Translations under genes and position numbers: made by a program
Origin: Candidatus Latescibacterota bacterium
GTDB taxonomy: Bacteria > Latescibacterota > UBA2968
Assembly (NCBI GenBank): GCA_038279365.1
Contig: JAYODI010000018.1
Coordinates: forward strand, 1-15,283
Length of the DNA stretch: 15,283 nucleotides
Direction: 5' to 3'
Notes under the pieces: model-generated
The model's input: the letters and a program-made list of their open reading frames with translations, nothing else
Databases searched by the model: none
What the model was told of the DNA's origin: nothing
Shown here: positions 243 to 14,037 of the stretch, in pieces
How positions within the stretch are numbered: position 1 is the stretch's first letter
Layout of the letters: each line of letters begins with the position of its first letter

Positions 243-1367
243 ATGCCAGTATTTGTATCTCGGTTTTCATCAAATCGGGCGGCAAGTGCGCTTTTACAAC
301 GAATACGCACACAGTCCTCCCAAACAGACACACGTGCAACCACCACAAACACACGTGAACAAAGAGAAGAACAAACTCGCGGGTCCAACAACACGCAACA
401 AACAACGCGTGCCAATGAGACCCTTTTGGCGCGTACCCAATTTGGCCAACAAATAGCCGATCGTTTGCAAGAGGCCCGTACAGCACAAACAAACAATGCC
501 AGATCAACCCGCGATACAAACACAGAACAGCAAACACGCACAACACAATCACAAACAGAGCCACAAACCGTTCGGGGCAATGGCAACACCACTCGCGAAA
601 ACAACCGCACAGAAACACAATCCAGGCTACAAACACCTCCCGGTGTGGGAACCACACGCTCCCAAGCAGACAACAACATCGAACGTTCTGGCCGTTTAGA
701 TCGGGCCCCAGCAAACCCCATACGCGAACAAATACTCAACGGTTTTGCACGGTTGCGCGCAATTGCCAGTGGCACCCTATCAGACAGAAACAACACACGC
801 ACCCAATCATCTGCCAACGCCAACGGGCCAGTTGCCAATCGAACCGATGATCGAATACGCTTTTTGGCCAACAATGCCTCGCAGTCACAAGGTCGTGCAA
901 CAGGCCAACAAGCCATAGAACGCCAAACACCCACCCTTGCGATTCAAACACCCGTTGCCATCCAAGCGTCAAGACTGGCACAGCCCACAGAAACACCCAC
1001 AGCCGAAGACATTAGCCGAGCAAATACCACCGAAGAAATTCGCAACAACCTACAGCAAGATGCCAGTGAAATTGCACGTGGACTCACACGAGACGGAACC
1101 CGGCAACTGCAACAAACCACACAACAAACAGCACAAAATGCCGAACGTGCAGCCGAAAGCCAAAGAACAGAAACACAAAACGAAAGCCGCCAAGAAATTC
1201 GCGAGCTCCAAACACAAGAACGCGACCTATCACGCGAGCTTCAGCAAACCCAACAAGATCTGCGCCAAGAACGTCTTCGTGTTCAGCGTTCTCAAAGTGC
1301 AGCATCTCAAAGCACCACTTCTTCAGCCGCAGCCATTGGCACCAATGTCAATATTCTTGCGGGATAA
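243..1367 (+). CDS. Hypothetical low-complexity Q/T/R/N-rich protein (374 aa) with a C-terminal coiled coil and a GTNVNILAG terminus
   Basis: Long ORF bracketed by a good promoter and a terminator; purine-rich AAGGACGAG upstream of the ATG; heptad-like QEIRELQTQERDLSRELQQTQQDL near the C-terminus. Confidence 0.85.
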   Translation: MPVFVSRFSSNRAASALLQRIRTQSSQTDTRATTTNTREQREEQTRGSNNTQQTTRANETLLARTQFGQQIADRLQEARTAQTNNARSTRDTNTEQQTRTTQSQTEPQTVRGNGNTTRENNRTETQSRLQTPPGVGTTRSQADNNIERSGRLDRAPANPIREQILNGFARLRAIASGTLSDRNNTRTQSSANANGPVANRTDDRIRFLANNASQSQGRATGQQAIERQTPTLAIQTPVAIQASRLAQPTETPTAEDISRANTTEEIRNNLQQDASEIARGLTRDGTRQLQQTTQQTAQNAERAAESQRTETQNESRQEIRELQTQERDLSRELQQTQQDLRQERLRVQRSQSAASQSTTSSAAAIGTNVNILAG

Positions 1368-3663: not shown

Positions 3664-4449
3664 CTACAACGCTGCCTGAATCAATATCATCAGAGCAAAA
3701 CCTGCAATAAAAGACCATGCCGTCTGCGTCGGCGAGCGCGTTTCCAATGCATCGGGAATCATCTCTCGCACCACCAAAAAAATCATCGCCCCAGCAGCCA
3801 CGCCCAACAATGGAATCATAAGTGGTTCAAAAAACCACACCAACAAAGCCGCCGGAACCGCCGCAAGCGGTTGGGGCAAACTGGTCAAAAAAGCCGCCCA
3901 AAAGCATTTTTGGATACTGGCACCGCCCGCACGAAGCGGAATGGCCACTGCCAAACCCTCGGGAATATTGTGAATCCCAATGGCCAAGGCAATATAAGAA
4001 CCCAGTCCTTCGGCCTCCGGTAAATATTGCGCAGAAGCATATCCCACCCCCACCGCGACCCCTTCAGGAATACTGTGAAAAGACATGGCCAAAAAAATCA
4101 ACAACTCACGCCGAGACCCCAAACGCTTAAAAAATGAGTTTTCCAAACGCTCTGGGGTCAAAAAATTGTCCATTAACGACAAAAAAAAGGCCCCAACAAG
4201 CAACCCCGACAAGATCAATACCACTTGCCGCAGTCCAGGCACATGCTCATCTAAGGTTAACCCTGGCAACAACAAATTATAAACCGATGCTGAAAACATC
4301 AGCCCACCCGCCAAACCATATCCCAACCCCATACGCTTTTCCACATCAAGCTGAGGAAAAAGCAAAGGCAATGCACCCAAACCACACGCCAAACTTGCCA
4401 AAATGCCAGCAATAAAGCTATAAATTAAAAAATCGTACTGTGCCATCAT
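3664..4449 (-). CDS. zupT: ZIP family (ZupT/GufA-like) divalent metal transporter
   Basis: Multi-TM protein with the ZIP signatures MSFHSIPEGVAVG and IGIHNIPEGLAVA, plus AAGAMIFLVVREMIP. Confidence 0.92.
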   Translation of the reverse strand: MMAQYDFLIYSFIAGILASLACGLGALPLLFPQLDVEKRMGLGYGLAGGLMFSASVYNLLLPGLTLDEHVPGLRQVVLILSGLLVGAFFLSLMDNFLTPERLENSFFKRLGSRRELLIFLAMSFHSIPEGVAVGVGYASAQYLPEAEGLGSYIALAIGIHNIPEGLAVAIPLRAGGASIQKCFWAAFLTSLPQPLAAVPAALLVWFFEPLMIPLLGVAAGAMIFLVVREMIPDALETRSPTQTAWSFIAGFALMILIQAAL

Positions 4450-4493
4450 CCAACCCTTTCACAATAATTGAAAATGCCAGACACACTACTTTT

Positions 4494-4522
4494 AGCGTAC
4501 TTCAAAAAAACATCATTGTCAA
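4494..4522 (-). promoter_or_regulatory. Sigma70-type promoter for the ZIP gene
   Basis: Minus strand TTGACA (4522-4517), 17-nt spacer, TACGCT (4499-4494). Confidence 0.65.
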
Positions 4523-4531
4523 CATAACATG

Positions 4532-4560
4532 TTGAAAAATTTATATTTATGTATTACCTT
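4532..4560 (+). promoter_or_regulatory. Candidate sigma70 promoter for the selenoprotein gene, back-to-back with the ZIP promoter
   Basis: TTGAAA (4532-4537), 17-nt spacer, TACCTT (4555-4560). Confidence 0.5.
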
Positions 4561-4740
4561 TACAACATTTGTATCAATGCTCAATCATATGATTTTAAAC
4601 ACCAACACCAACATATCATCTATCACCCGTTATGAGATACGGGAACCCATTCTTTTTATTGGTCAAACAGAACGGGTTTCTCTATATTTTACAAGGCGTT
4701 TCAATCATACCAACTGGCTTTCTCTTATTTGGAGGTACCA

Positions 4741-5217
4741 ATGAAATTATGGGCCACTCTGTTATTCACCTGCTTGCTGGTGAGTAACACCATGGCAGAA
4801 AACAAAGAAGAAACATTTACTTGGCGCAAATTGGGCCCAGCAATGGTCGAAGCCCAAAAAACCAACAAAATGATCCTGGTCGATATATATACCGATTGGT
4901 GAGGCTGGTGCAAAAAACTGGACCGTGATGTCCTGTCAAAAACCGATGTACAAGCTTATCTTGCCAAAAACTTCATTCCCGTAAAACTCAATGCCGAAAA
5001 CAAAAAAGACCGCGTCAAAATTCTTGAACACGATCTCAGTTATGCCGAAGCGGTTTCAGCTTATGGTGTAAAAGGCTTTCCCGCAACTTTGTTTCTCGAA
5101 CCCAACGGTCAACTCATTTACAACCTCTCGGGTTATCACCCAAAAGACAAATACCTCGAAATTCTCAAATTTATGGCCGAACGAAAGTTTGAAGCTGAGC
5201 AAGGTGAAGGAGAATAG
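4741..5217 (+). CDS. Exported thioredoxin-fold protein with a UxxC active site (probable selenoprotein, Sec at codon 54; 158 aa); absent from the ORF track
   Basis: RBS GGAGG (4731-4735) and ATG 4741. Manual translation: MKLWATLLFTCLLVSNTMAENKEETFTWRKLGPAMVEAQKTNKMILVDIYTDW*GWCKKLDRDVLSKTDVQAYLAKNFIPVKLNAENKKDRVKILEHDLSYAEAVSAYGVKGFPATLFLEPNGQLIYNLSGYHPKDKYLEILKFMAERKFEAEQGEGE-TAG. The only internal stop is TGA 4900-4902, at the first Cys position of WCxxC. The cis-Pro motif GVKGFPATLF is intact and a terminator follows. Confidence 0.9.
4906..4945 (+). promoter_or_regulatory. Candidate bacterial SECIS element
   Basis: Apical stem GGAC (4920-4923)/GTCC (4930-4933) with loop CGTGAT (G then U at loop positions 2-3). 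The loop starts 21 nt after the UGA. The stem extends by AC/GT across a U-U mismatch; lower stem TGGT (4906-4909)/ACCG (4942-4945). Confidence 0.6.
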
Positions 5218-5230
5218 CGTCGACTTCAAT

Positions 5231-5265
5231 TAAAAAAGGCGATCCACAATGGATCGCCTTTTTTA
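5231..5265. terminator. Bidirectional intrinsic terminator between the selenoprotein gene and the convergent metal-efflux operon
   Basis: TAAAAAAGGCGATCCA-caa-TGGATCGCCTTTTTTA, a perfect inverted repeat with A/T tracts. Confidence 0.92.
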
Positions 5266-5392
5266 TGACTCAAATTTAAAATTCACAACCATTTGCTTCG
5301 CTGTGCCCCCCCAAAAACCAGACCACCCCCACCACAGACGATTTTGATACGGCTCAAAGCCGCTTAAAATTTCGATACGCCTTATAAAATGT

Positions 5393-6208
5393 CTAATGAT
5401 GGTGAAACAAGACCACACCAATACCCAACAAAATAAGCACCCCACCCAAGATCATATTTTCATATCGCTCCAACCACGGCATTTCCAAGTGCTGCACACC
5501 TAAAAATGTCAGCCCAGTAAACACCAACATCCCCGCCAACGTACCCACAGCCAACACCACCGACAGCAATATAAAAACAGTCCACCCATGCGGCCAAGCC
5601 GTCAGGTATATTGGCAAAAAACCTTCACAAGGTGAAAAAGTCAGCAATGCAATTAATGAAACCACCGCCACCTTATCAGGCGAAAAACGAGCCTCATCTA
5701 CATGATGATCGTGCCCATGATCGCCGTGGTCATGCGCGTGTGTATGACCATCATGCGAATGGTCATGATCACCGTGATCATGATTATGATGATCGTGTGT
5801 ATGATCCCCATGTTCGTGGTGGTGATGATCATGAGAATGATCGCCATGAGCATGCCCATGATGGTCGTGTCCAAAACCGGGAATATGTAAATGACTATGA
5901 CCCACCCCACGAAAATGTTGCACAATGTAAAAAAGCCCCAACAAAATCAACACACCCGCAGCCAATGGTTCTGCCCAAGCTTCTACATAATCAGTAATTG
6001 CAACGCCCATCCACACAATCAACACACCCAACAAGGTGGTAATTAACACATGCCCACCACCTGCCAATGTCACCACCGACAGCGTTTTGCCAATAGACCA
6101 CTTTTGAGCCCGTCCAGCCAACACAAATGGCAACCAGTGATTGGGCAAAATCGCGTGTAAAAAAGACACCGACAAACCCGCAACAATAAAACCCGTATAA
6201 ACGTCCAA
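5393..6208 (-). CDS. His-rich NiCoT/RcnA/UreH-like Ni/Co membrane transporter (271 aa)
   Basis: TM1 motif FLHAILPNHW, GGGHV in TM2, a long His-rich loop, LTFSPCEG after the loop, about 6 TMs. Start placed at TTG 6208 with AGAGG (6220-6216) 7 nt upstream; the track start 6241 overlaps the ATPase. Confidence 0.8.
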   Translation of the reverse strand: MDVYTGFIVAGLSVSFLHAILPNHWLPFVLAGRAQKWSIGKTLSVVTLAGGGHVLITTLLGVLIVWMGVAITDYVEAWAEPLAAGVLILLGLFYIVQHFRGVGHSHLHIPGFGHDHHGHAHGDHSHDHHHHEHGDHTHDHHNHDHGDHDHSHDGHTHAHDHGDHGHDHHVDEARFSPDKVAVVSLIALLTFSPCEGFLPIYLTAWPHGWTVFILLSVVLAVGTLAGMLVFTGLTFLGVQHLEMPWLERYENMILGGVLILLGIGVVLFHHH

Positions 6209-6221
6209 ATCATAACCTCTT

Positions 6222-8357
6222 TCAATCAGAAGCACGCACACGTGCCAAGCGCAATGCGTTTCCAGTCACCCCAAGCGTCGTCCCCATGTCGCCCACCAAA
6301 ACAGCAACGACCAAAGAAACAACACCAGGAACAATACCTACAGCCAAAAGCAATTTTACCAAAATGGCAAACCCAATATTTTGCCGAATAACATGTCGGG
6401 CTTGATGAGACAAGTCAAACAAATATGGCAACTTAGACAAATCATCGGCCATCAATGCCACATCGGCTGTTTCCAACGCCGTATCTGTACCGGCCACACC
6501 CATCGCAATACCAACCGTCGCAAAAGCCAATGCAGGCGCATCATTTACCCCATCACCCACCATCGCCACAGCACCATGTTGCCCCAACAAATCTTTTAAT
6601 GCCGTCAATTTTTCTTCGGGCAACAACTCAGCTTGCCAAGATCCCACCCCCACACGTTCGGCAATTGCTTGAGCCGTTTTGGGGTTATCGCCCGTCAACA
6701 TCACCGTCTTCATGCCACGCTGATGCAATGCACGAACAATGGCTTGCGCTTCTGGTCGCACTGTATCGGCAACAGCAATCACACCCAAGATCTCGGCCTG
6801 AGTGCCCACCAAAACCGCCGTTTTACCCGCCTTTTGAAAATCATCAACCCACGCTTTGCCATCAGCAGAAAACAAACTGGGTGACCCAACTTGATACATC
6901 ACCCCATCTACTCGGCCACACACACCCTTGCCTGTTATAGACCTAAAATCTGTCACACCAACATCGGCATCTGTCGGCGAAAAGGCACAAATTGCGTGTG
7001 CAACAGGGTGTCCAGATCGCATTTCCAAAGCCGAGGCAATACGCAACACATCGGCTTCGGCCCACCCCTGCACAGCCACCACATCGGTCACAACGGGTTT
7101 ACCATAAGTGAGTGTGCCCGTTTTGTCAAATGCAACAACACGCACGCCCCCTGCGGCTTCGAGATAATTGCCCCCTTTAATCAACACACCCTGCCTTGCT
7201 GCACTGGTAATACCACTCACCACCGCAATAGGCGTCGAAATCACCAATGCACACGGGCACGCAATAACAAGCAAGGTCAACCCCCTGACAAACCACAAGG
7301 AAAATTCACCTCCCAATAACAATGATGGGATCAAAATGACGCCCAAAGCCAACACAGTCACTGCAGGTGTGTAATACCGCGAAAAGGTTTGCACAAATTG
7401 CTCACTCGGGGCACGGTGTTCCTCTGCCTCCTCCACCATTTGAATAATGCGCTGAAACGTACTCTCCGATGCCACACGTGTCGCCCGCACCTCCAAATAC
7501 CCTTCCAGATTAATCGTACCAGCAAAAACGTCGTTGCCCACACCTTTATTGACAGGCATCGACTCACCCGTAATGGGTGACTGGTCCACTGTCGATACCC
7601 CATCCACCACCTCACCATCAACAGGCACCTTTTCACCGGGCCGCACAATCACAATCTGATCACAAATAACCTCTTCAACAGAAACAATACGTTCCCCCAC
7701 CTCCGTCTTCAATGTGGCCACATCAGGTGCCAAATCCATCAAATTTTTCAACGACCGCCGCGCACGATCAATGGCATAATCTTCGAGCAACTCAGCAGTT
7801 GAAAACAAAAAGGCAATCGCCGCCGCCTCCATATATTCACCAATGACCACAGCACCAATAATGGCAATCGTCATCAAAAAATCAATATCCAGCGAAAACG
7901 ATCTTAAAGACCGAAAACCCGCCGCAAAAAAATTACTGCCTCCTAAAATGGCCGCCAACACATAGAACACCTGATACCACTCAAAATGTCCCGTCCAAAC
8001 CGGCTGGGCCTCAACCTGCCCAACAGTCCAAGACAAACCAAGACCCAAAAAGAAAAACAACCCAGCAAACAACGTACACACTTTCTCACGGTTGTACCAA
8101 AACGAGACGTGCTCAGCACCCTCTACATCGGGTGAATACCCTGCATCTCGAATTGCTTTGTTGATCTCTCCAATACCAATCTTTTCAGAAACATAATGTA
8201 CAGTCACTTTTTGACTCATCACATGGGTCGTCACCTCTTCAACACCAGAAAGTCGACGCACCGCCTTTTCAATCGTATCTGCACATCCTGCACATTCCAT
8301 GTCGGGCACTTTAAGTTGATAAAAAGCTTGTTCTTTTATTTGAGCCATTTGTCCCAT
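6222..8357 (-). CDS. zntA: Heavy-metal P1B-2 type ATPase (Zn/Cd/Pb export, ZntA/CadA-like)
   Basis: N-terminal HMA domain DMECAGC, TGES, CPC, DKTGTLT, HP (SGHP), TGDN, GDGVNDAP. The TM7 Lys (ILVKLL) and TM8 Asp-Gly (GDMG) are typical of P1B-2. The start could also be 8348. Confidence 0.93.
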   Translation of the reverse strand: MGQMAQIKEQAFYQLKVPDMECAGCADTIEKAVRRLSGVEEVTTHVMSQKVTVHYVSEKIGIGEINKAIRDAGYSPDVEGAEHVSFWYNREKVCTLFAGLFFFLGLGLSWTVGQVEAQPVWTGHFEWYQVFYVLAAILGGSNFFAAGFRSLRSFSLDIDFLMTIAIIGAVVIGEYMEAAAIAFLFSTAELLEDYAIDRARRSLKNLMDLAPDVATLKTEVGERIVSVEEVICDQIVIVRPGEKVPVDGEVVDGVSTVDQSPITGESMPVNKGVGNDVFAGTINLEGYLEVRATRVASESTFQRIIQMVEEAEEHRAPSEQFVQTFSRYYTPAVTVLALGVILIPSLLLGGEFSLWFVRGLTLLVIACPCALVISTPIAVVSGITSAARQGVLIKGGNYLEAAGGVRVVAFDKTGTLTYGKPVVTDVVAVQGWAEADVLRIASALEMRSGHPVAHAICAFSPTDADVGVTDFRSITGKGVCGRVDGVMYQVGSPSLFSADGKAWVDDFQKAGKTAVLVGTQAEILGVIAVADTVRPEAQAIVRALHQRGMKTVMLTGDNPKTAQAIAERVGVGSWQAELLPEEKLTALKDLLGQHGAVAMVGDGVNDAPALAFATVGIAMGVAGTDTALETADVALMADDLSKLPYLFDLSHQARHVIRQNIGFAILVKLLLAVGIVPGVVSLVVAVLVGDMGTTLGVTGNALRLARVRASD

Positions 8358-8419: not shown

Positions 8420-11400
8420 TTAAGCAGCTTGTGTCACATCAACTTTCCGTTCGGGTTCTACGGCAAACCATTTATAAAGAGCAGGAATCACCAACAAAGT
8501 CAAAATCGTTGACGTAACCAAACCACCGACAACAACCGTGGCCAACGGGCGTTGTACTTCACTACCCGTACCACTGGAAAACAACAACGGCAATAACCCC
8601 AAAGAAGTTGTCACGGCCGTCATCAACACCGCACGCAACCGCAAACATGCCCCATCAACAGACGCATCATCTACATCCATACCATCACGCAACAGTTGAT
8701 TGAGGTATGTAATAAGCACCATACCATTTTCAAGCGCAATACCAAATAACGCAATAAACCCCACAGAAGCAGGCACCGACAAGTTTTGCCCCGTTAGCCA
8801 CAAACCCACAACCCCACCCACCAATGCCAACGGAATATTGAACAAAATAAGCACCGTATTTTTTAACGAATTAAAACTGCTAAACAACAGCAAAAACACC
8901 ACAAACAACGTCACGGGAATCACCACCACCAACCGTTTATTCGCCTCTTGCTGCAACTCAAACTGCCCCCCCCACGTCACCAAATAACCCGGTGGTAAAT
9001 CCACATTTTGTGCAATAGCCGCTTGTGCATCGGCCACAAAAGAACCCATATCACGCCCACGCACATTGCATTGCACAGTAATAAACCGCTGATTGTTCTG
9101 GCGTGTAATTTGGCGAGGCCCCACAATCTCCTCCACAAGTGCCAACTCACCCAAAGACACCTTCACACCCGTTGGTGAAGACACCAAAATATTGGCAATC
9201 ACTTCAGGTGATGATCGTGCCGATTGTGCATACCGCACCAAAATATCGAACCGCGCCACCCCTTCAAAAATTTGCCCAGCCGTTTCACCACCCACCGCTG
9301 TGCGAATCACATCTTGCACATCGGCCACATTCATGCCATACCGTCCTATGGCTTCTCGGTTGATTGTAATGCGCAATTGAGGTGTGCCTGTCACTTGGTC
9401 TTTTTGCACATCTGCAGAACCTTTAACAGAACGAATCACACCCTCAATCTCACCCGCCTTTTGTTCCAATATAGCCATGTCGGCACCAAAAAGCTTAATC
9501 GCAAGTTCGGCCTTTGTGCCCGTTAACAGTTCATCCACAGCCGCTGCAATCGGTTGTGTAAAATTAAATCTCGCGCCAGGAAAGTTTTCAAATGCCTCCC
9601 CCATAATCGCATACAATGCTTCTGGGTTATCGGCTGTTGTCCATTCATCTTGTGGTTTGAGGGCCACAAAAGATTCGGCATTGTTCACAGGATCGGCATG
9701 CGCACCCACCTCACCACGCCCCACCCGGCTCACCACACGTTCCACCTCAGGAAACTGCATCATGCGCTTTTCAAAAATGGTCACCATATCCCGTGCTTCA
9801 TCCAACGAAATAGACGGTGCCATTGTCACACGTACCAACAAATCACCTTCATTCAATTGCGGCACAAACTCAGACCCCAGAAACGGAAAAATCACCAAGC
9901 CCACAACAAGCATCCCCACCGCCAAAATAACTGCCCATTTTCGGTTTTGCACAAACCGAGTCACCAATGGACGATACATCACCATCAATGCATTGAGAAG
10001 GCGATTTTCTTTTTCATCGCGCGTCTTGGGCCGTCGCATCAACAAATTGGAAATCACGGGTGCCATCACAATGGCAAAAATTAAGGATCCCACCATTGCC
10101 AACGCCACCGTATAGGCCAACGGACGAAACGTTTTGCCCTCCACGCCATGCAGGGTAAACAACGGCAAAAACACAATCACAATAATAGAAATGGCAAAAA
10201 CAATCGGTCGCCCCACCTCAACACATGCCCGACTGATTACCTGCAAACGCGATTCATCAGCAGGTGCTTCACGCAACATACGATCTACGTTTTCTACCAT
10301 CACAATCGTACCATCCACCATCATTCCAATGGCAATGGCCACCCCACCCAACGACATCAAATTGGCCGAAATATCAAAGGCATACATCAAAATAAATGCA
10401 AAAAATATCGAAAACGGAATCGACAAGGCCACCACCACACTGGGCCGAAACCCACCCATAAACACAAGCAGTACCAACGCAACCAATACCACACCTTGCA
10501 ACAACGCATGTGTAACGGTCTCTACACATTTTGCGACCAACGTGGCTTGGTCATAATAAGGCACCATCTTAATACCCGGTGGCAACAAAGTATTAATCCG
10601 TTCAATCTGATTTTTCACATCTCCAATCACCTGCGAAGTATTTGTCCCAATCAACTTCAAAATCATCCCCACAACCGCCTCGCCCTCGCCATTCATCGTG
10701 GCAAGCCCTTGGCGCACTTCGCCACCCACCTCAATATCGGCCACCTGCTCCAAATAAAGGGGGCGCCCATCTACAGCCTTGAGCACAATGCGATTCAAGT
10801 CCTCTATTTTTTCGGCCAACCCCACAGAACGCACCACATATTGCTCGGCATTTTTCACAATAAACTGCGCGCCCACATTGGCATTGTTGGCCTTAACCGA
10901 TTCAACAATTTCATGCAACGACAAATCGTATTGCAACAAAGCATCTGGGCGCACCAAAATGTGAAACTGCTTCACTTGCCCACCCAAAGAAAGCACCTCC
11001 GTCACCCCAGGCACCGTCTGCAAATTAAACTTAATGAGCCAATCTTGAATCTGGCGCATCTCTTCACCACTTCGAGCTCCCGACTCATCTTCCACCACAT
11101 AAAACAAGATCTGCCCCAAGCCCGTTGCAATTGGCCCCATATCGGGTTCGCCAAAACCCTCGGGAATTTGACCACGTGCCAGTTGCAACCGTTCATTGAC
11201 CAACTGTCGGGCAAAATAAATATCGGTGCCTTCTTCAAAATAAATATTGATCACCGACAACCCAAAATTTGAAATCGAACGCACCTCTTTCAAATTGGGC
11301 AAACCATTCATTGCCACTTCCACAGGATACGTCACATACTTTTCAACTTCTTCAGGGGCCAAACCTTCCGTTTCAGTAAACACCTGCACCAACGCCGGTG

Positions 11401-11524
11401 TGACATCGGGAAAAGCATCCACTGGCAACTTGAGATAACTCACATAACCTGCCACCAAAACCAACCCCATAAAAACCATCATCAAGAGACGGCTTTTAAG
11501 CACAAATTGAATCAAACCTTGCAT
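8420..11524 (-). CDS. czcA: CusA/CzcA family heavy-metal RND efflux permease
   Basis: LPVDAFPDVT, EVEKYVTYPVEVAMNGLP, ANLMSLGG..IAIGMMVDGTIVMVEN, EGKTFRPLA, GSEVQRPLATVVVGGL; RBS AGGAGG. Confidence 0.95.
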   Translation of the reverse strand: MQGLIQFVLKSRLLMMVFMGLVLVAGYVSYLKLPVDAFPDVTPALVQVFTETEGLAPEEVEKYVTYPVEVAMNGLPNLKEVRSISNFGLSVINIYFEEGTDIYFARQLVNERLQLARGQIPEGFGEPDMGPIATGLGQILFYVVEDESGARSGEEMRQIQDWLIKFNLQTVPGVTEVLSLGGQVKQFHILVRPDALLQYDLSLHEIVESVKANNANVGAQFIVKNAEQYVVRSVGLAEKIEDLNRIVLKAVDGRPLYLEQVADIEVGGEVRQGLATMNGEGEAVVGMILKLIGTNTSQVIGDVKNQIERINTLLPPGIKMVPYYDQATLVAKCVETVTHALLQGVVLVALVLLVFMGGFRPSVVVALSIPFSIFFAFILMYAFDISANLMSLGGVAIAIGMMVDGTIVMVENVDRMLREAPADESRLQVISRACVEVGRPIVFAISIIVIVFLPLFTLHGVEGKTFRPLAYTVALAMVGSLIFAIVMAPVISNLLMRRPKTRDEKENRLLNALMVMYRPLVTRFVQNRKWAVILAVGMLVVGLVIFPFLGSEFVPQLNEGDLLVRVTMAPSISLDEARDMVTIFEKRMMQFPEVERVVSRVGRGEVGAHADPVNNAESFVALKPQDEWTTADNPEALYAIMGEAFENFPGARFNFTQPIAAAVDELLTGTKAELAIKLFGADMAILEQKAGEIEGVIRSVKGSADVQKDQVTGTPQLRITINREAIGRYGMNVADVQDVIRTAVGGETAGQIFEGVARFDILVRYAQSARSSPEVIANILVSSPTGVKVSLGELALVEEIVGPRQITRQNNQRFITVQCNVRGRDMGSFVADAQAAIAQNVDLPPGYLVTWGGQFELQQEANKRLVVVIPVTLFVVFLLLFSSFNSLKNTVLILFNIPLALVGGVVGLWLTGQNLSVPASVGFIALFGIALENGMVLITYLNQLLRDGMDVDDASVDGACLRLRAVLMTAVTTSLGLLPLLFSSGTGSEVQRPLATVVVGGLVTSTILTLLVIPALYKWFAVEPERKVDVTQAA

Positions 11525-11536
11525 TGCTCGCCTCCT

Positions 11537-12769
11537 TTAATGGTTGTGTCCATCGCCAAAAGCACCTTTTTCAAGCTGTGCTTTGAGTGTAAATGCACCT
11601 TGTGTCACATACCGCATCCCAGGTTCTAACCCCTTCACGATCTCTGCTTGGGTAATATTTGTCTCACCAACAACAACAGGCAAAGGTTCAAACCCTTCAT
11701 CGGTTTGAACAAAAACACACAGCCTCTTTTCCACCATTTGCAAAGCCGTTTTGGGCACCAGCAAAGCAACATGTTTGCGATCCACTTCAACAGCCCCCGT
11801 CACAAACAAACCCGGTCGCCAATGACCACTCACATTTGACAAAACAACACGCGCCGTTGCCGTGCGTGTGGCCTCATCAATCATAGGGCTAATGTATGAC
11901 ACCTGCCCGGTAACCACCTCGCCCCCTTCTTTGGCGGAAATATGCACAGGATCACCCATTTTTAAATGTGATAAATCTTTCTGATAAACAGCCAACGCCA
12001 CCCAAACCGTACTCAAATCGGCAATCGAAAAAATAGCCGCATCATCTTTTATATTTTCGCCCAATGTAATATGCTTGGCGACCACCACCCCATCAAAGGG
12101 GGCAACCACCTCATAACGCGTGTAAGACATATCAGGCTGATCAGGCAAGGTTTTGAGATACGCATCTGAAAAACCCAACGCATGCAATTTGTGTTCTGCC
12201 GATTGTGACGCAATACGTACTTCGGCCAACATTTGTTTGCTCGACAAATATTCCCGTTCCGATGAAATCCCATCCTGCCAAAGCCGATCTTCTCTACGAA
12301 ACGTAACATCTGCCAAAGAAAACCGTTCACGTGCCGCCAAAAACTCAGACTTCAAATCAGACAACTCTCGGCTGTCTAACACAGCCAAAACATCACCCGA
12401 GTGAACCTGATCACCTAAGCGCTTATTTACCTTTTGCACCACACCCGAAACGCGAGGAACAATATGAGCAAACCGATCTGGGTTCACCTGCACCTCACCA
12501 GGCAAAGAGACCTGTACTTCCAAATGACCAGATTGGGCGATCTCCGTCTCAATACCAAACATTTTTAATTCCGCATCACTTAGCCGCACAACATCTTCGT
12601 GTGCATCCTCACCATGATCTTCATGGCCTTCTTTATCGTGCTCATCATGAGATGTCGCTTCTGTTTTTTCATGTGCGTGTGTGTGTTCATCTTCAGCATA
12701 TATAGGTATATTCCAATGGGCCACACACAGGCCCATCAAGATCATCATAAATAAAAATCCGTTTTTCAC
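11537..12769 (-). CDS. czcB: CzcB-like RND periplasmic adaptor (membrane fusion protein) with a His/Glu-rich N-terminus
   Basis: N-terminal hydrophobic segment, EDEHTHAHEK...HEDHGEDAHED, HIVPRVSGVV, APFDGVV, IADLSTVWV, WRPGLFV, C-terminal GHNH. The GTG start overlaps the czcC TGA (GTGA). Confidence 0.92.
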   Translation of the reverse strand: MKNGFLFMMILMGLCVAHWNIPIYAEDEHTHAHEKTEATSHDEHDKEGHEDHGEDAHEDVVRLSDAELKMFGIETEIAQSGHLEVQVSLPGEVQVNPDRFAHIVPRVSGVVQKVNKRLGDQVHSGDVLAVLDSRELSDLKSEFLAARERFSLADVTFRREDRLWQDGISSEREYLSSKQMLAEVRIASQSAEHKLHALGFSDAYLKTLPDQPDMSYTRYEVVAPFDGVVVAKHITLGENIKDDAAIFSIADLSTVWVALAVYQKDLSHLKMGDPVHISAKEGGEVVTGQVSYISPMIDEATRTATARVVLSNVSGHWRPGLFVTGAVEVDRKHVALLVPKTALQMVEKRLCVFVQTDEGFEPLPVVVGETNITQAEIVKGLEPGMRYVTQGAFTLKAQLEKGAFGDGHNH

Positions 12770-14037
12770 TGTTCATTCTCCTGTGATTCCAATAAGGTCC
12801 CCGTCGCATGGGCAAGCTGTGCTTTTGCCGCACGGTATTCATAGAGGGCTTCCACATATTCCGTTTGTGTATCAACCCATTCTCGTTGTGCCTCAAGCAA
12901 ATCCAAATAACGCGCTTTCCCTTCATCATAACTTTGACGGGCCATTTCCAAAGCGGCCTTCGATGTGGGTAAAATGCGTGCTTGCATCCATTTGACACGC
13001 TCAGACACCGCTTTAAGATTTGCAATGGCCGTATCAACCTCTTGAGCAATTTTCTGTTTTAAATGATCACGCTCAGCACCCACCTGTAACACGTTTGCAC
13101 GGGCCTCGTCTATTTGGCCCCGCTGTTTGCTAAAGGCCCAAATGGGCAACTCTATAGCAATGCCCGTACGCCAAAACTTTTGCACACCCGTTGGTGCAAC
13201 AGCCGTTTGACGAAAAATGCCAACCGACACATCGGGCAATGTAGAAACGACAGCCAAAGACTTTGCCTTTTGAGCACCCAAATAAGCTTTTTGAGCACCC
13301 AACCATTCAGTACGCTTAAACCACGCCTGATGACGCAAGCCATCATCATCTAAATGTTCAGGCACATAGACCAGTTCATCCGCCAATACCAACAACGTAT
13401 CACCTGGACGGTTCAACAATGCATTTAAAGACACCCGCGACACCTTCAAATTATTTTGCATCATCAGGTGCTGGTTTTTTTGACGCAACAAAGCCACCTC
13501 AGACCGCATCACATCCAACTTGGGTACATCTCCTGCGGCAAAACGCATTTTTGCACGGTTAAACAAACGTTCGGCCAATGCCACATTTTCTTCGGAATAA
13601 CGCACAATTTGTGCATCGGCAAGCACGCGATCATAAGCCAAGTGTACACGCAAAGCCACATCTGCGCGTGTGGTCTCATAAACCCCCAACCGCACTGACT
13701 GAACCTGAAGCCCACTCATTTGACCTCGCAACCACCAACCCGCAGGAAACGGAACGTGCTGAACAATACCCACATCTTTTTGCTCAAACGATCCAAATTG
13801 AAACGCGCCAGACATCCCCTCATATTCCAACGCAAACTCAGGGTCTGGTGGCGACCAAGCTTGGAGCGAACGCGCATGTTCCGCCTTCCACACCTGATAA
13901 GCCACAATCACTTCGGGGTTGTGCAACAGTGCCATTTGAACCGCACCGTCTCGTGTAATAGATTCGGCAAAAACACTGCGTGAAAGCCCCATAAAAACGA
14001 GAGCACTCCACACCATGATAGTGAGATATGAAAACAT
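12766..14037 (-). CDS. czcC: TolC/CzcC family outer-membrane efflux protein
   Basis: Signal peptide, ALLHNPEV, RFAAGDVPKLDVMRSEV, SYDEGKARYLDLLEAQR; first of the RND C-B-A genes; RBS GGAGG at 14046-14042. Confidence 0.9.
   Translation of the reverse strand: MFSYLTIMVWSALVFMGLSRSVFAESITRDGAVQMALLHNPEVIVAYQVWKAEHARSLQAWSPPDPEFALEYEGMSGAFQFGSFEQKDVGIVQHVPFPAGWWLRGQMSGLQVQSVRLGVYETTRADVALRVHLAYDRVLADAQIVRYSEENVALAERLFNRAKMRFAAGDVPKLDVMRSEVALLRQKNQHLMMQNNLKVSRVSLNALLNRPGDTLLVLADELVYVPEHLDDDGLRHQAWFKRTEWLGAQKAYLGAQKAKSLAVVSTLPDVSVGIFRQTAVAPTGVQKFWRTGIAIELPIWAFSKQRGQIDEARANVLQVGAERDHLKQKIAQEVDTAIANLKAVSERVKWMQARILPTSKAALEMARQSYDEGKARYLDLLEAQREWVDTQTEYVEALYEYRAAKAQLAHATGTLLESQENEQ

Follow-up and report, generated by a model that had tools for sequence, protein, structure and literature searches.

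Does the in-frame TGA at positions 4900–4902 of a Latescibacterota contig end a broken gene, or does it encode selenocysteine (Sec, U)? The window considered here is the whole stretch of DNA that was analyzed, 15,283 nt of contig JAYODI010000018.1 (assembly GCA_038279365.1, Candidatus Latescibacterota bacterium). A preliminary description of the window had placed a complete gene in a gap of the open reading frame (ORF) track, with a ribosome-binding site, an ATG, a signal-peptide-like N-terminus and a terminator. All of these parts were seen when the sequence was checked, the terminator by folding. Three elements of the gene define the question:

4741–5217, + strand: coding sequence of the putative selenoprotein, 158 codons if TGA is read as U, with ATG at 4741 and the stop TAG at 5215–5217.
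4900–4902, + strand: UGA, the probable selenocysteine codon U54, first position of U-G-W-C within D-W-U-G-W-C.
4909–4911, + strand: codon of C57, the predicted resolving cysteine, an invariant column of the orthologue alignment.

Read from the translation, 4900–4902 is the sole in-frame TGA of the gene. As originally described, it stands at the first Cys of the thioredoxin motif, and 104 codons then follow to the TAG. We conclude that this UGA very probably encodes selenocysteine, on the strength of sequence comparisons set out below. We further consider it highly likely that the whole is a functional, monocistronic gene for an exported Sec-containing thiol-disulfide oxidoreductase, with its UGA recoded via a hairpin downstream.

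To compare the codon across relatives, six-frame searches were run on 41 genomes (40 relatives plus G000, the genome of the window), then on the whole family (31 genomes) and the phylum (168 genomes). The best matches among the 41 genomes came from G000, G002 and G001, which belong to the same genus (80–82% identity), and from G005, of another genus in the same family (57%). Each of these four genes has one TGA, always at the same aligned codon, giving U-G-W-C in three and U-S-W-C in one. In the phylum search, 21 genomes had a match at E 1e-18 or better, comprising 4 TGA forms and 17 Cys forms (TGY). The preliminary description had predicted C or U at position 54 of homologues, and C or TGA is what was seen there. 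The TGA of G011 lies outside the active site, which reads W-C-A-Y-C in that genome. U54, C57 and P114 are invariant columns in the orthologue alignment. Comparisons with G005 are saturated at synonymous sites, and the ratio of nonsynonymous to synonymous rates (dN/dS) was taken from three within-genus pairs; it is 0.10–0.14 past the TGA versus 0.14–0.20 before it. Relaxed selection downstream of the TGA, which had been named as a sign of recent nonsense mutation, is thus absent. Because the TGA occupies the same aligned codon in four genomes and in metagenome contigs, chance as its source can be excluded.

The machinery needed to decode UGA as Sec is present in the same genome. The genes selA (592 bits), selB (379 bits) and selD (367 bits) and a tRNA-Sec with anticodon tca all score above curated cut-offs, and they lie together within 6 kb on contig C34 of G000 (31069–36920). 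The selD gene itself has one in-frame TGA, so SelD is a selenoprotein in G000. This genome is estimated to be 98.5% complete with 7.4% contamination; C34 and the 68.5-kb contig of the window are both typical of it in GC content and tetranucleotides, being 15th and 56th among the 128 contigs when these are ordered by distance from the mean. All 10 relatives tested have selA, holders of the Sec form and of the Cys form alike, and hence the Cys forms are not explained by loss of the Sec trait.

The TGA also recurs in data obtained independently of the assembly. A 701-nt stretch with the gene is present in runs of 13 studies (estuary, marine, marsh), and for four of these runs assembled contigs were compared with the window. 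A contig from a marine DNA study spans 4600–5162 with one difference (at 5058), and a salt-marsh DNA contig spans 4877–5038 with none; both keep the TGA. A 421-nt contig from a metatranscriptome library spans 4724–5144 without difference and therefore bridges the TGA, and a second RNA library covers 4912–5060 and 5088–5238. Confirmation of the TGA in further reads, as the preliminary description had proposed, thus comes from two DNA studies besides the window's own and from one RNA library, each through an assembled contig. One caveat here is that DNA carried over into the RNA library may be the source of its contig, which hence indicates presence of the gene, not its transcription or translation.

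If the UGA is recoded, a selenocysteine insertion sequence (SECIS) would be expected just downstream. Two overlapping elements are found there:

4906–4937, + strand: 32-nt stretch without synonymous change; codons +3 to +11 are identical in four Sec-form genes.
4917–4936, + strand: SECIS-like hairpin ACUGGAC[CGUGAU]GUCCUGU, with its apical loop at 4924–4929, 21 nt past the UGA.

Constraint at the RNA level is seen exactly where the SECIS is expected. All nine degenerate codons following U-x-W are identical in the four TGA genes, compared to 18 of 57 elsewhere in the gene; for four- and six-fold degenerate codons the counts are 4/4 in the frozen stretch versus 2/28 elsewhere. The hairpin lies within this stretch, and it is present in all three folds that include it. 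It is also the consensus structure of eight orthologues (RNAalifold; L027 and L029 among the references). Among them it varies in L147 alone, where one G-C pair has become G-U and the two basal pairs are broken. According to a 2026 review that catalogues selenoproteins, bacterial SECIS (bSECIS) elements have a loop of 3–9 nt, an upper stem of 4–16 bp and a G in the first two loop positions, lie 16–37 nt from the UGA, and have a minimum free energy of at most –7.5 kcal/mol (PMC13188914). The hairpin has a 6-nt loop, CGUGAU, with G second and then U, a 21-nt spacing, and a 4-bp stem, GGAC/GUCC, with two further pairs beyond a U-U mismatch, all within these limits. Its energy is borderline against the limit, at –5.3 kcal/mol alone and –7.8 kcal/mol for the 46 nt from the UGA.

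Several observations weigh against assigning a SECIS function to this element. The hairpin is small, as its energy when folded alone indicates. The fold of 64 nt is no better than shuffled sequence (z –0.61; 58 of 200 shuffles equally stable). None of 15 pairs shows a two-sided change in the window's orthologue group (RNAalifold), meaning that within this group the hairpin rests on invariance, not covariation. Finally, the difference in folding between Sec and Cys forms is not significant when corrected for composition (median z –0.48 versus –0.15, P = 0.09). Uncorrected, mRNAs of the Sec form (n = 32) are more stable past the codon than those of the Cys form (n = 94), with medians of –9.9 and –6.85 kcal/mol (P = 0.003); as significance was lost after the control for composition, we dropped this bulk contrast as support. 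A scan of the whole window against Rfam, at E up to 1, returned seven weak matches, none of them at the gene; this SECIS is not expected in Rfam.

Covariation does appear in relatives of other architectures, and it is these that lend the SECIS support of this kind. We scanned metagenome contigs with a degenerate DNA pattern for Y-[TA]-x-W-TGA-x-[WY]-C-xxx-[DE]-R, which gave 39 matches in 38 loci. In 32 of these the frame stays open for 76–263 codons past the TGA; the seven with short frames were taken as chance. Four bases of the hairpin's 5' arm were specified by this pattern, and hence the sample is not unbiased. The 28 distinct sequences form groups, each with its own hairpin. Apart from the window's group, three architecture/SECIS groups have distinct hairpins that start 16–18 nt past the TGA and show compensatory changes. 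In a group of six, the third position of a Leu codon pairs with the first base of a Gln, Lys or Glu codon as G-C, U-A or C-G. In another, Arg (CGC) is replaced by His (CAC), and AGC on the opposite arm has become AGT in step (CGCU/AGCG versus CACU/AGUG).

Two explanations would do without selenocysteine, and both can be weighed against these data. The TGA might be a true stop, whether it arose recently by nonsense mutation, reflects an assembly error or separates the halves of a split gene that no read-through joins. Gene callers do treat it as one: for the window's own DNA the public protein collection holds only a 99-residue C-terminal fragment (P0007), which bears out the expectation that pipelines would truncate this exported thioredoxin-fold protein. 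The thermodynamic weakness of the hairpin also fits a stop. Yet the same TGA occurs in four genomes of two genera and in further metagenome contigs, it is unaltered in the contigs from two other DNA studies, and downstream of it dN/dS is low and synonymous sites are frozen. Moreover, termination would leave a 53-residue N-terminal piece consisting of a signal peptide and a quarter of a thioredoxin fold. We consider a true stop very improbable. A variant genetic code, with TGA read as Trp or another standard residue, is less probable still. Some pipelines do put W at the TGA of relatives (P0003–P0006, P0012), having applied a code in which TGA is Trp and thereby created a false W-W-G-W-C site. 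Such a site would destroy a redox motif that has Cys in all other homologues. Within the window, the P1B-ATPase and czcC genes terminate normally at TGA, and an in-frame TGA is absent from the 10 genes besides the selenoprotein gene. Trp is encoded by TGG, which occurs 53 times and is used in 10 of the 11 genes, the remaining one being a 374-codon ORF (243–1367) without a Trp codon. The preliminary description had relied on the same points, which withstood counting. Its central proposal, that UGA is recoded as Sec where UxxC has its nucleophile, is thus upheld by the Cys and TGA homologues, the machinery, the purifying selection and the retention of the TGA.

The gene appears to be a unit of its own. 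Its flanking and N-terminal elements are as follows:

4660–4688, + strand: promoter-like site, TGGTCA-17 nt-TATATT, from a consensus scan (9 of 12 matches).
4731–4735, + strand: Shine-Dalgarno sequence GGAGG, 5 nt upstream of the ATG.
4741–4797, + strand: predicted signal peptide, residues 1–19, with presumed cleavage past T-M-A, assigned by eye.
5231–5265, + strand: intrinsic terminator, a 16-bp hairpin then a U run, between the convergent genes for the selenoprotein and a His-rich membrane protein.

In the aligned upstream regions of relatives, TATATT is unchanged in 8 of 8 and ATTGGTCAAA is kept in 6 of 8. At the place of the Shine-Dalgarno sequence, eight aligned relatives have a G/A-rich GGAGG or AGAGG/AAGG. 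The N-terminus, MKLWATLLFTCLLVSNTMA followed after the presumed cleavage by ENKEE, has one Lys, a 12-residue hydrophobic core and T-M-A, and looks like a type I signal peptide. The N-termini of orthologues are equivalently hydrophobic, and two of them carry a lipobox-like ...G-C/A-C. A terminator scanner reported none in 4400–5450, although direct folding of 5228–5268 revealed the 16-bp hairpin (–22.7 kcal/mol, z –7.9, with 0 of 200 shuffles equally stable); this terminator is probably bidirectional. Nucleotide homology to the loci of relatives is limited to 4644/4654–5265, from ∼90 nt 5' of the ATG through the end of the terminator, and in five loci it stops at 5264–5267. This confinement, together with the conserved promoter elements, indicates that the gene is, by sequence, a self-contained monocistronic module running from promoter to terminator. 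A palindrome, TTTAGC-N4-GCTAAA, is found ∼105 nt 5' of the ATG in L185 (∼2200–2225), L148, L166, L171 and L029 and is absent from the window at ∼4625–4650. An operator is one possible reading of it, a leftover of an upstream terminator another.

What kind of protein would be made? Pfam places it with Thioredoxin_2 (PF13098, 60.8 bits), DUF255/Thioredox_DsbH (PF03190, 58.8 bits) and Thioredoxin_7 (PF13899, 56.5 bits), against a cut-off of 27 bits, so that the likeness to DUF255 thioredoxins proposed earlier holds. For the other name proposed, SoxW, we note that there are no sox genes among the 11 ORFs of the window that were scanned. An AlphaFold model, built from a 9-row alignment, has the thioredoxin fold with a mean predicted local distance difference test (pLDDT) score of 83.6; 117 of 158 residues score 90 or more, and pLDDT is low solely in residues 1–22 and 151–158. 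In the model, the U54-x-x-C57 motif precedes a helix (55–65), and the invariant P114 occupies the loop position of the cis-Pro (F-P-A). Foldseek matched the model, all at probability 1.0, to 4fyb/4fyc, to 3f9u (the C-terminal domain of a Bacteroides protein related to cytochrome c biogenesis), to the DsbD-gamma chains 2fwe, 1vrs and 1uc7, to 7tkv (a Thioredox_DsbH domain) and to DsbH (2ju5). The best solved chain by sequence profile is 2kuc, a Bacteroides ‘putative disulphide-isomerase’ (E 6.6e-22). The top NCBIfam matches are to the thioredoxin domains in TsoB, DsbH and DsbD and fall well short of the respective cut-offs, and none of the curated selenoprotein models there reaches its cut-off for this protein. 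On the model, the product is a predicted thioredoxin-fold domain of the DsbD-gamma/DsbH/HP0377 type.

From these elements a working scheme can be proposed. The ribosome would read the UGA at 4900–4902 as selenocysteine, with the hairpin at 4917–4936, inside the coding sequence and 15 nt past the UGA, recruiting SelB carrying Sec-tRNA(Sec). The protein would be made with a cleavable signal peptide of the Sec pathway, judging from its N-terminal sequence, and reach the periplasm as a mature protein of ∼139 residues, a single thioredoxin-fold domain with a W-U-G-W-C site. There it would act as a thiol-disulfide oxidoreductase; the nearest characterized folds suggest that it most likely works in the reducing direction. 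The U54 selenolate would attack a substrate disulfide and C57 would resolve the selenenylsulfide. The oxidized U-C pair would then probably be re-reduced by the genome's single membrane electron carrier of the DsbD/CcdA type, a presumed partner; the one DsbD_TM gene of the genome (116 bits) adjoins a thioredoxin paralogue. By analogy, then, we infer an exported disulfide reductase or isomerase with U54 as the nucleophile and C57 as the resolving residue.

UxxC selenoproteins of the DsbD-gamma type have been recognized since 2004 through genome mining; the member described here and its relatives lack annotation as such. In the catalogue of the 2026 review, a ‘Thiol:disulfide interchange protein’ family is defined by PF13098 and UxxC, with one Sec, is called ‘predicted with high confidence’ and is credited to Kryukov & Gladyshev 2004; the catalogue lists no experimentally characterized exported Sec-thioredoxin (PMC13188914). 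The Global Ocean Sampling survey names the family ‘Trx-like 2’ (cd02953, DsbD-gamma; UxxC) and counts 22 Sec forms next to 2,098 Cys homologues (PMC2398784), and a 2006 survey gives a ‘Thiol:disulfide interchange protein’ selenoprotein in Syntrophus aciditrophicus and two Geobacter species (PMC1794560). The window's protein resembles this family in its best Pfam match (PF13098), its UxxC motif, its one Sec and its DsbD-gamma-like fold. The members catalogued are from Syntrophus and Geobacter, unlike the lineage of the window. Having PF13098 and UxxC, the protein belongs to the catalogued family by the catalogue's own definition, that is, by domain and motif, not by sequence comparison with the representative WP_011366075.1.

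Comparison with individual proteins gives the same general picture of a shared domain in a different setting. The DsbD-gamma chains of E. coli and Neisseria (2fwe, 1vrs, 1uc7, 6dnl) share the thioredoxin fold (Foldseek probability 1.0; template-modelling score 0.65–0.73 on the target; profile E 1.9e-8 to 2.6e-6) and have a periplasmic CxxC pair. DsbD-gamma is, however, the last domain of a three-domain membrane protein, whereas the window's gene encodes a predicted free, secreted protein of 158 residues, with Sec for the first Cys and, unlike DsbD, G-W between the pair. As a single domain it scores 43.5 bits against 330 for the DsbD model (NF001419), aligning to model positions 458–569 only. 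The best structural match is H. pylori 4fyb/4fyc (E 3.6e-8; root-mean-square deviation 2.2 Å over 115 columns), which we take to be HP0377, a CcmG-like periplasmic reductase. By sequence 4fyb is the second-best solved chain (E 3.9e-16), the match including the C-terminal helix G-Y-x-P...F-L-x-V-L-x-F. It differs in its overall sequence (23% identity), in its C-S-Y-C site with Cys and in a longer N-terminal part; a Pfam scan of the window's ORFs found no cytochrome c maturation genes adjoining the selenoprotein gene. Likeness to Chlamydia DsbH (2ju5) and DUF255/Thioredox_DsbH is seen in the PF03190 score and the structural matches to 2ju5 and 7tkv, although the DsbH model (NF043050) gives 47 bits against 190, and the protein is not an equivalog of DsbH. 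The best NCBIfam match is TsoB, a rhodanese/DsbD fusion-like selenoprotein (NF045694), positions 439–568 of whose 572 align to residues 6–142; at 51.6 bits against 805 the match covers the C-terminal domain only. TsoB is a 572-position multi-domain protein with the Sec motif UxxxxU (PMC13188914), whereas the window's protein has UxxC.

Of 149 candidates from the public protein collection, 142 reach E 1e-10 or better, and no named one among the matches listed (120 rows) is called a selenoprotein. Of 13 sequences fetched, five have W at the Sec position, four, the window's own among them, are C-terminal fragments of 89–99 residues, and four are Cys forms. A literature search on selenocysteine with periplasmic or DsbD-type thioredoxins or DUF255 found nothing on this protein by title or abstract.

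The pattern scan also bears on how the Sec forms have evolved. In a FastTree phylogeny of 116 distinct thioredoxin domains, the sister group of the window's Sec clade (seven rows, support 99) is made up of the Cys forms from the sister family (support 88). At least five changes of the Sec/Cys label are required on this tree, two of them forced by well-supported branches. Clustering of the Sec rows is partly by design, as they were collected with a pattern built from the window's group.

Two further kinds of Sec-form relative were noted in the metagenome contigs. Tandem paralogous thioredoxin-TPR (tetratricopeptide repeat) genes mix Sec and Cys forms, in the order U-G-W-C, C-G-W-C, U-H-W-C, U-G-W-C at L177 (556–3400), with C-G-W-C, U-H-W-C and U-G-W-C at L164 (6945–9430). 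A fusion family of ∼335 residues (L152, L154, L155, L159, L161, L165, L167, L168, L172, L175, L176, L180, L181, L182) has a signal peptide, an N-terminal domain of ∼220 residues with weak matches to DUF2092 and LolA, and, at the C-terminus, a thioredoxin domain whose motif is U-H-W-C or U-T-Y-C. In this family the TGA is followed by a 9-bp hairpin with GGU as its loop, and none of the curated selenoprotein models matches.

We then turned to the neighbourhood, which the preliminary description had called a metal-homeostasis cluster. The genes around the selenoprotein gene are:

3664–4449, – strand: ZIP/ZupT-like metal transporter, divergent (Pfam Zip 68.3 bits; NCBIfam ZupT 107 bits, under its cut-off of 252).
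5393–6241, – strand: His-rich-loop membrane protein, 282 residues, convergent with the selenoprotein gene.
6222–8357, – strand: Zn/Cd-type P1B ATPase (Pfam E1-E2_ATPase, Hydrolase and HMA; NCBIfam ATPase-IB above its cut-off).
8420–11524, – strand: CzcA (Pfam ACR_tran 987 bits).
11537–12769, – strand: CzcB (Pfam HlyD_D23 162 bits).
12766–14037, – strand: CzcC-like outer-membrane factor (Pfam OEP 144 bits).

The His-rich membrane protein has a long His/Asp-rich loop (HGHAHGDHSHDHHHHEHGDH...), and the first 20 nt of its gene are shared with the end of the P1B-ATPase gene. The protein has no Pfam or NCBIfam family at threshold, and the NiCoT-like assignment given to it earlier found no backing in Pfam. 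Its nearest relatives in a protein atlas are unnamed clusters, with DsbD_2 and NicO on minorities of members, which we treat as a lead only. The protein is 76% identical to the product of the gene following the ATPase in G001, the pair being conserved.

Metal genes recur beside the closest relatives of the selenoprotein gene. The ATPase and His-rich pair is found again at the G001 locus, where a PadR gene and a multihaem cytochrome have been inserted. A P1B ATPase is directly adjacent in G005 and a CzcA-like gene in L166. The L148 locus, 88.6% identical to the window in nucleotides, has a CopZ-type zinc finger, MerT and MerR, and L147, a more distant lipoprotein Sec form, has ZnuABC. Of the Cys forms, G086 lies by a transposase, a P1B ATPase and ArsR, and G025 by Feo and DtxR-type genes. 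In G002 and L171, HupE/UreJ and a CsoR-type repressor are 4–6 kb off. By a rough estimate, several metal systems beside one small gene exceed chance expectation.

Several observations speak against a link to metals. The direct neighbours in G002 and L171 are a di-haem oxidoreductase and a glutaredoxin-like gene. The selenoprotein gene is always convergent or divergent to adjacent metal genes and never co-oriented with them, and some of the metal contexts are inherited synteny. Among distant Cys-form loci, for which we took the best 80 of 598 stretches confirmed out of 600 (W-C peptide pattern, none from the window's phylum), tblastn found a P1B ATPase within 4 kb in two and CzcA in none. When the window's metal proteins were searched against these 80 loci together with the 38 pattern loci, P1B was found in two and CzcA in one. 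Thus 78 of the 80 distant Cys-form loci lack these metal neighbours, and the metal association is not a property of the wider family. The metal-homeostasis role proposed at the outset therefore stands in part: metal neighbours do recur in close relatives, but they are lacking at most distant Cys-form loci and are never co-oriented with the gene.

Two further loci and one ORF of the window hold genes of unassigned family. At L185 (3336–5239) and L148 (3091–4994), a conserved gene pair encoding 373 and 261 residues, 86% and 75% identical between the loci, lies downstream of the selenoprotein gene, at a distance of 0.5–1.6 kb, and Pfam returned no match for either gene. The 374-codon ORF of the window (243–1367, + strand) has no Trp and no Cys codon and no Pfam or NCBIfam match, and by BLASTP it is unrelated to the 373-residue proteins of L148 and L185.

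Granting a genuine exported selenoprotein, what would it do? It could work on the oxidizing or isomerizing side, like DsbA or DsbC, instead of as a DsbD-fed reductase. The periplasm is oxidizing, the catalogue includes UxxC forms of DsbA-like and DsbG-like proteins (PMC13188914), and depositors title or name 2kuc ‘disulphide-isomerase’ and 4fyb ‘DsbC’. The model, however, shows one thioredoxin domain, which lacks both the helical insert of DsbA and a dimerization domain, and the closest folds include DsbD-gamma and DsbH, which act in reducing pathways. We regard the oxidizing side as unlikely. A similarly unlikely alternative, in our estimate, is that U-x-x-C binds soft metals (Zn, Cd, Hg, Cu(I)) and that the protein is a periplasmic buffer or chaperone, not an oxidoreductase. 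Such a role would suit the P1B ATPases by the gene in G000, G001, G005 and G086, CzcA in G000 and L166, the MerT/MerR/CopZ-type genes of L148, ZnuABC in L147 and Feo in G025. It would also suit the catalogue's statements that for ∼20% of selenoprotein families the binding of an atom or chemical group, in most cases a metal, is predicted and that Sec forms of MerT-like, P-type ATPase and CopZ-like proteins exist (PMC13188914). Set against this are the WCxxC-type motif, the invariant Pro114 in the cis-Pro position, nearest folds that are all redox enzymes, and the lack of co-orientation with transporters. The neighbours, moreover, handle different metals and include both uptake and efflux systems, and hence a general redox role fits better than that of a specific chaperone.

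Within the preferred reading, that of a thiol-disulfide oxidoreductase, a connection to metals may still exist at the level of substrates. Because the closest relatives adjoin various metal transporters, the substrates or the role of the protein might be tied to envelope metal stress; from gene context, we rate this as possible, with the greater probability on the other side. It is more doubtful that the orthologue group is a dedicated envelope metal-stress selenoprotein, a module repeatedly placed beside Zn/Cd ATPase, Czc, Mer, Znu or Feo genes. If it were, the selenol-thiol pair would keep cysteines of periplasmic metal proteins reduced and metal-free, or would capture thiophilic metals.

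To a specialist the finding will not be surprising, as selenoproteins of this kind are already known. It adds a well-supported and so far unannotated selenoprotein to an estuarine and marine bacterial lineage, and it provides a concrete case of public collections mishandling Sec genes, cut to 86–99 residues or given Trp at the Sec codon. The recurrent adjacency to metal transporters is a testable lead on the function of exported Sec-thioredoxins. Should the protein prove to be a metal-stress selenoprotein, selenium would have a direct role in bacterial metal tolerance.

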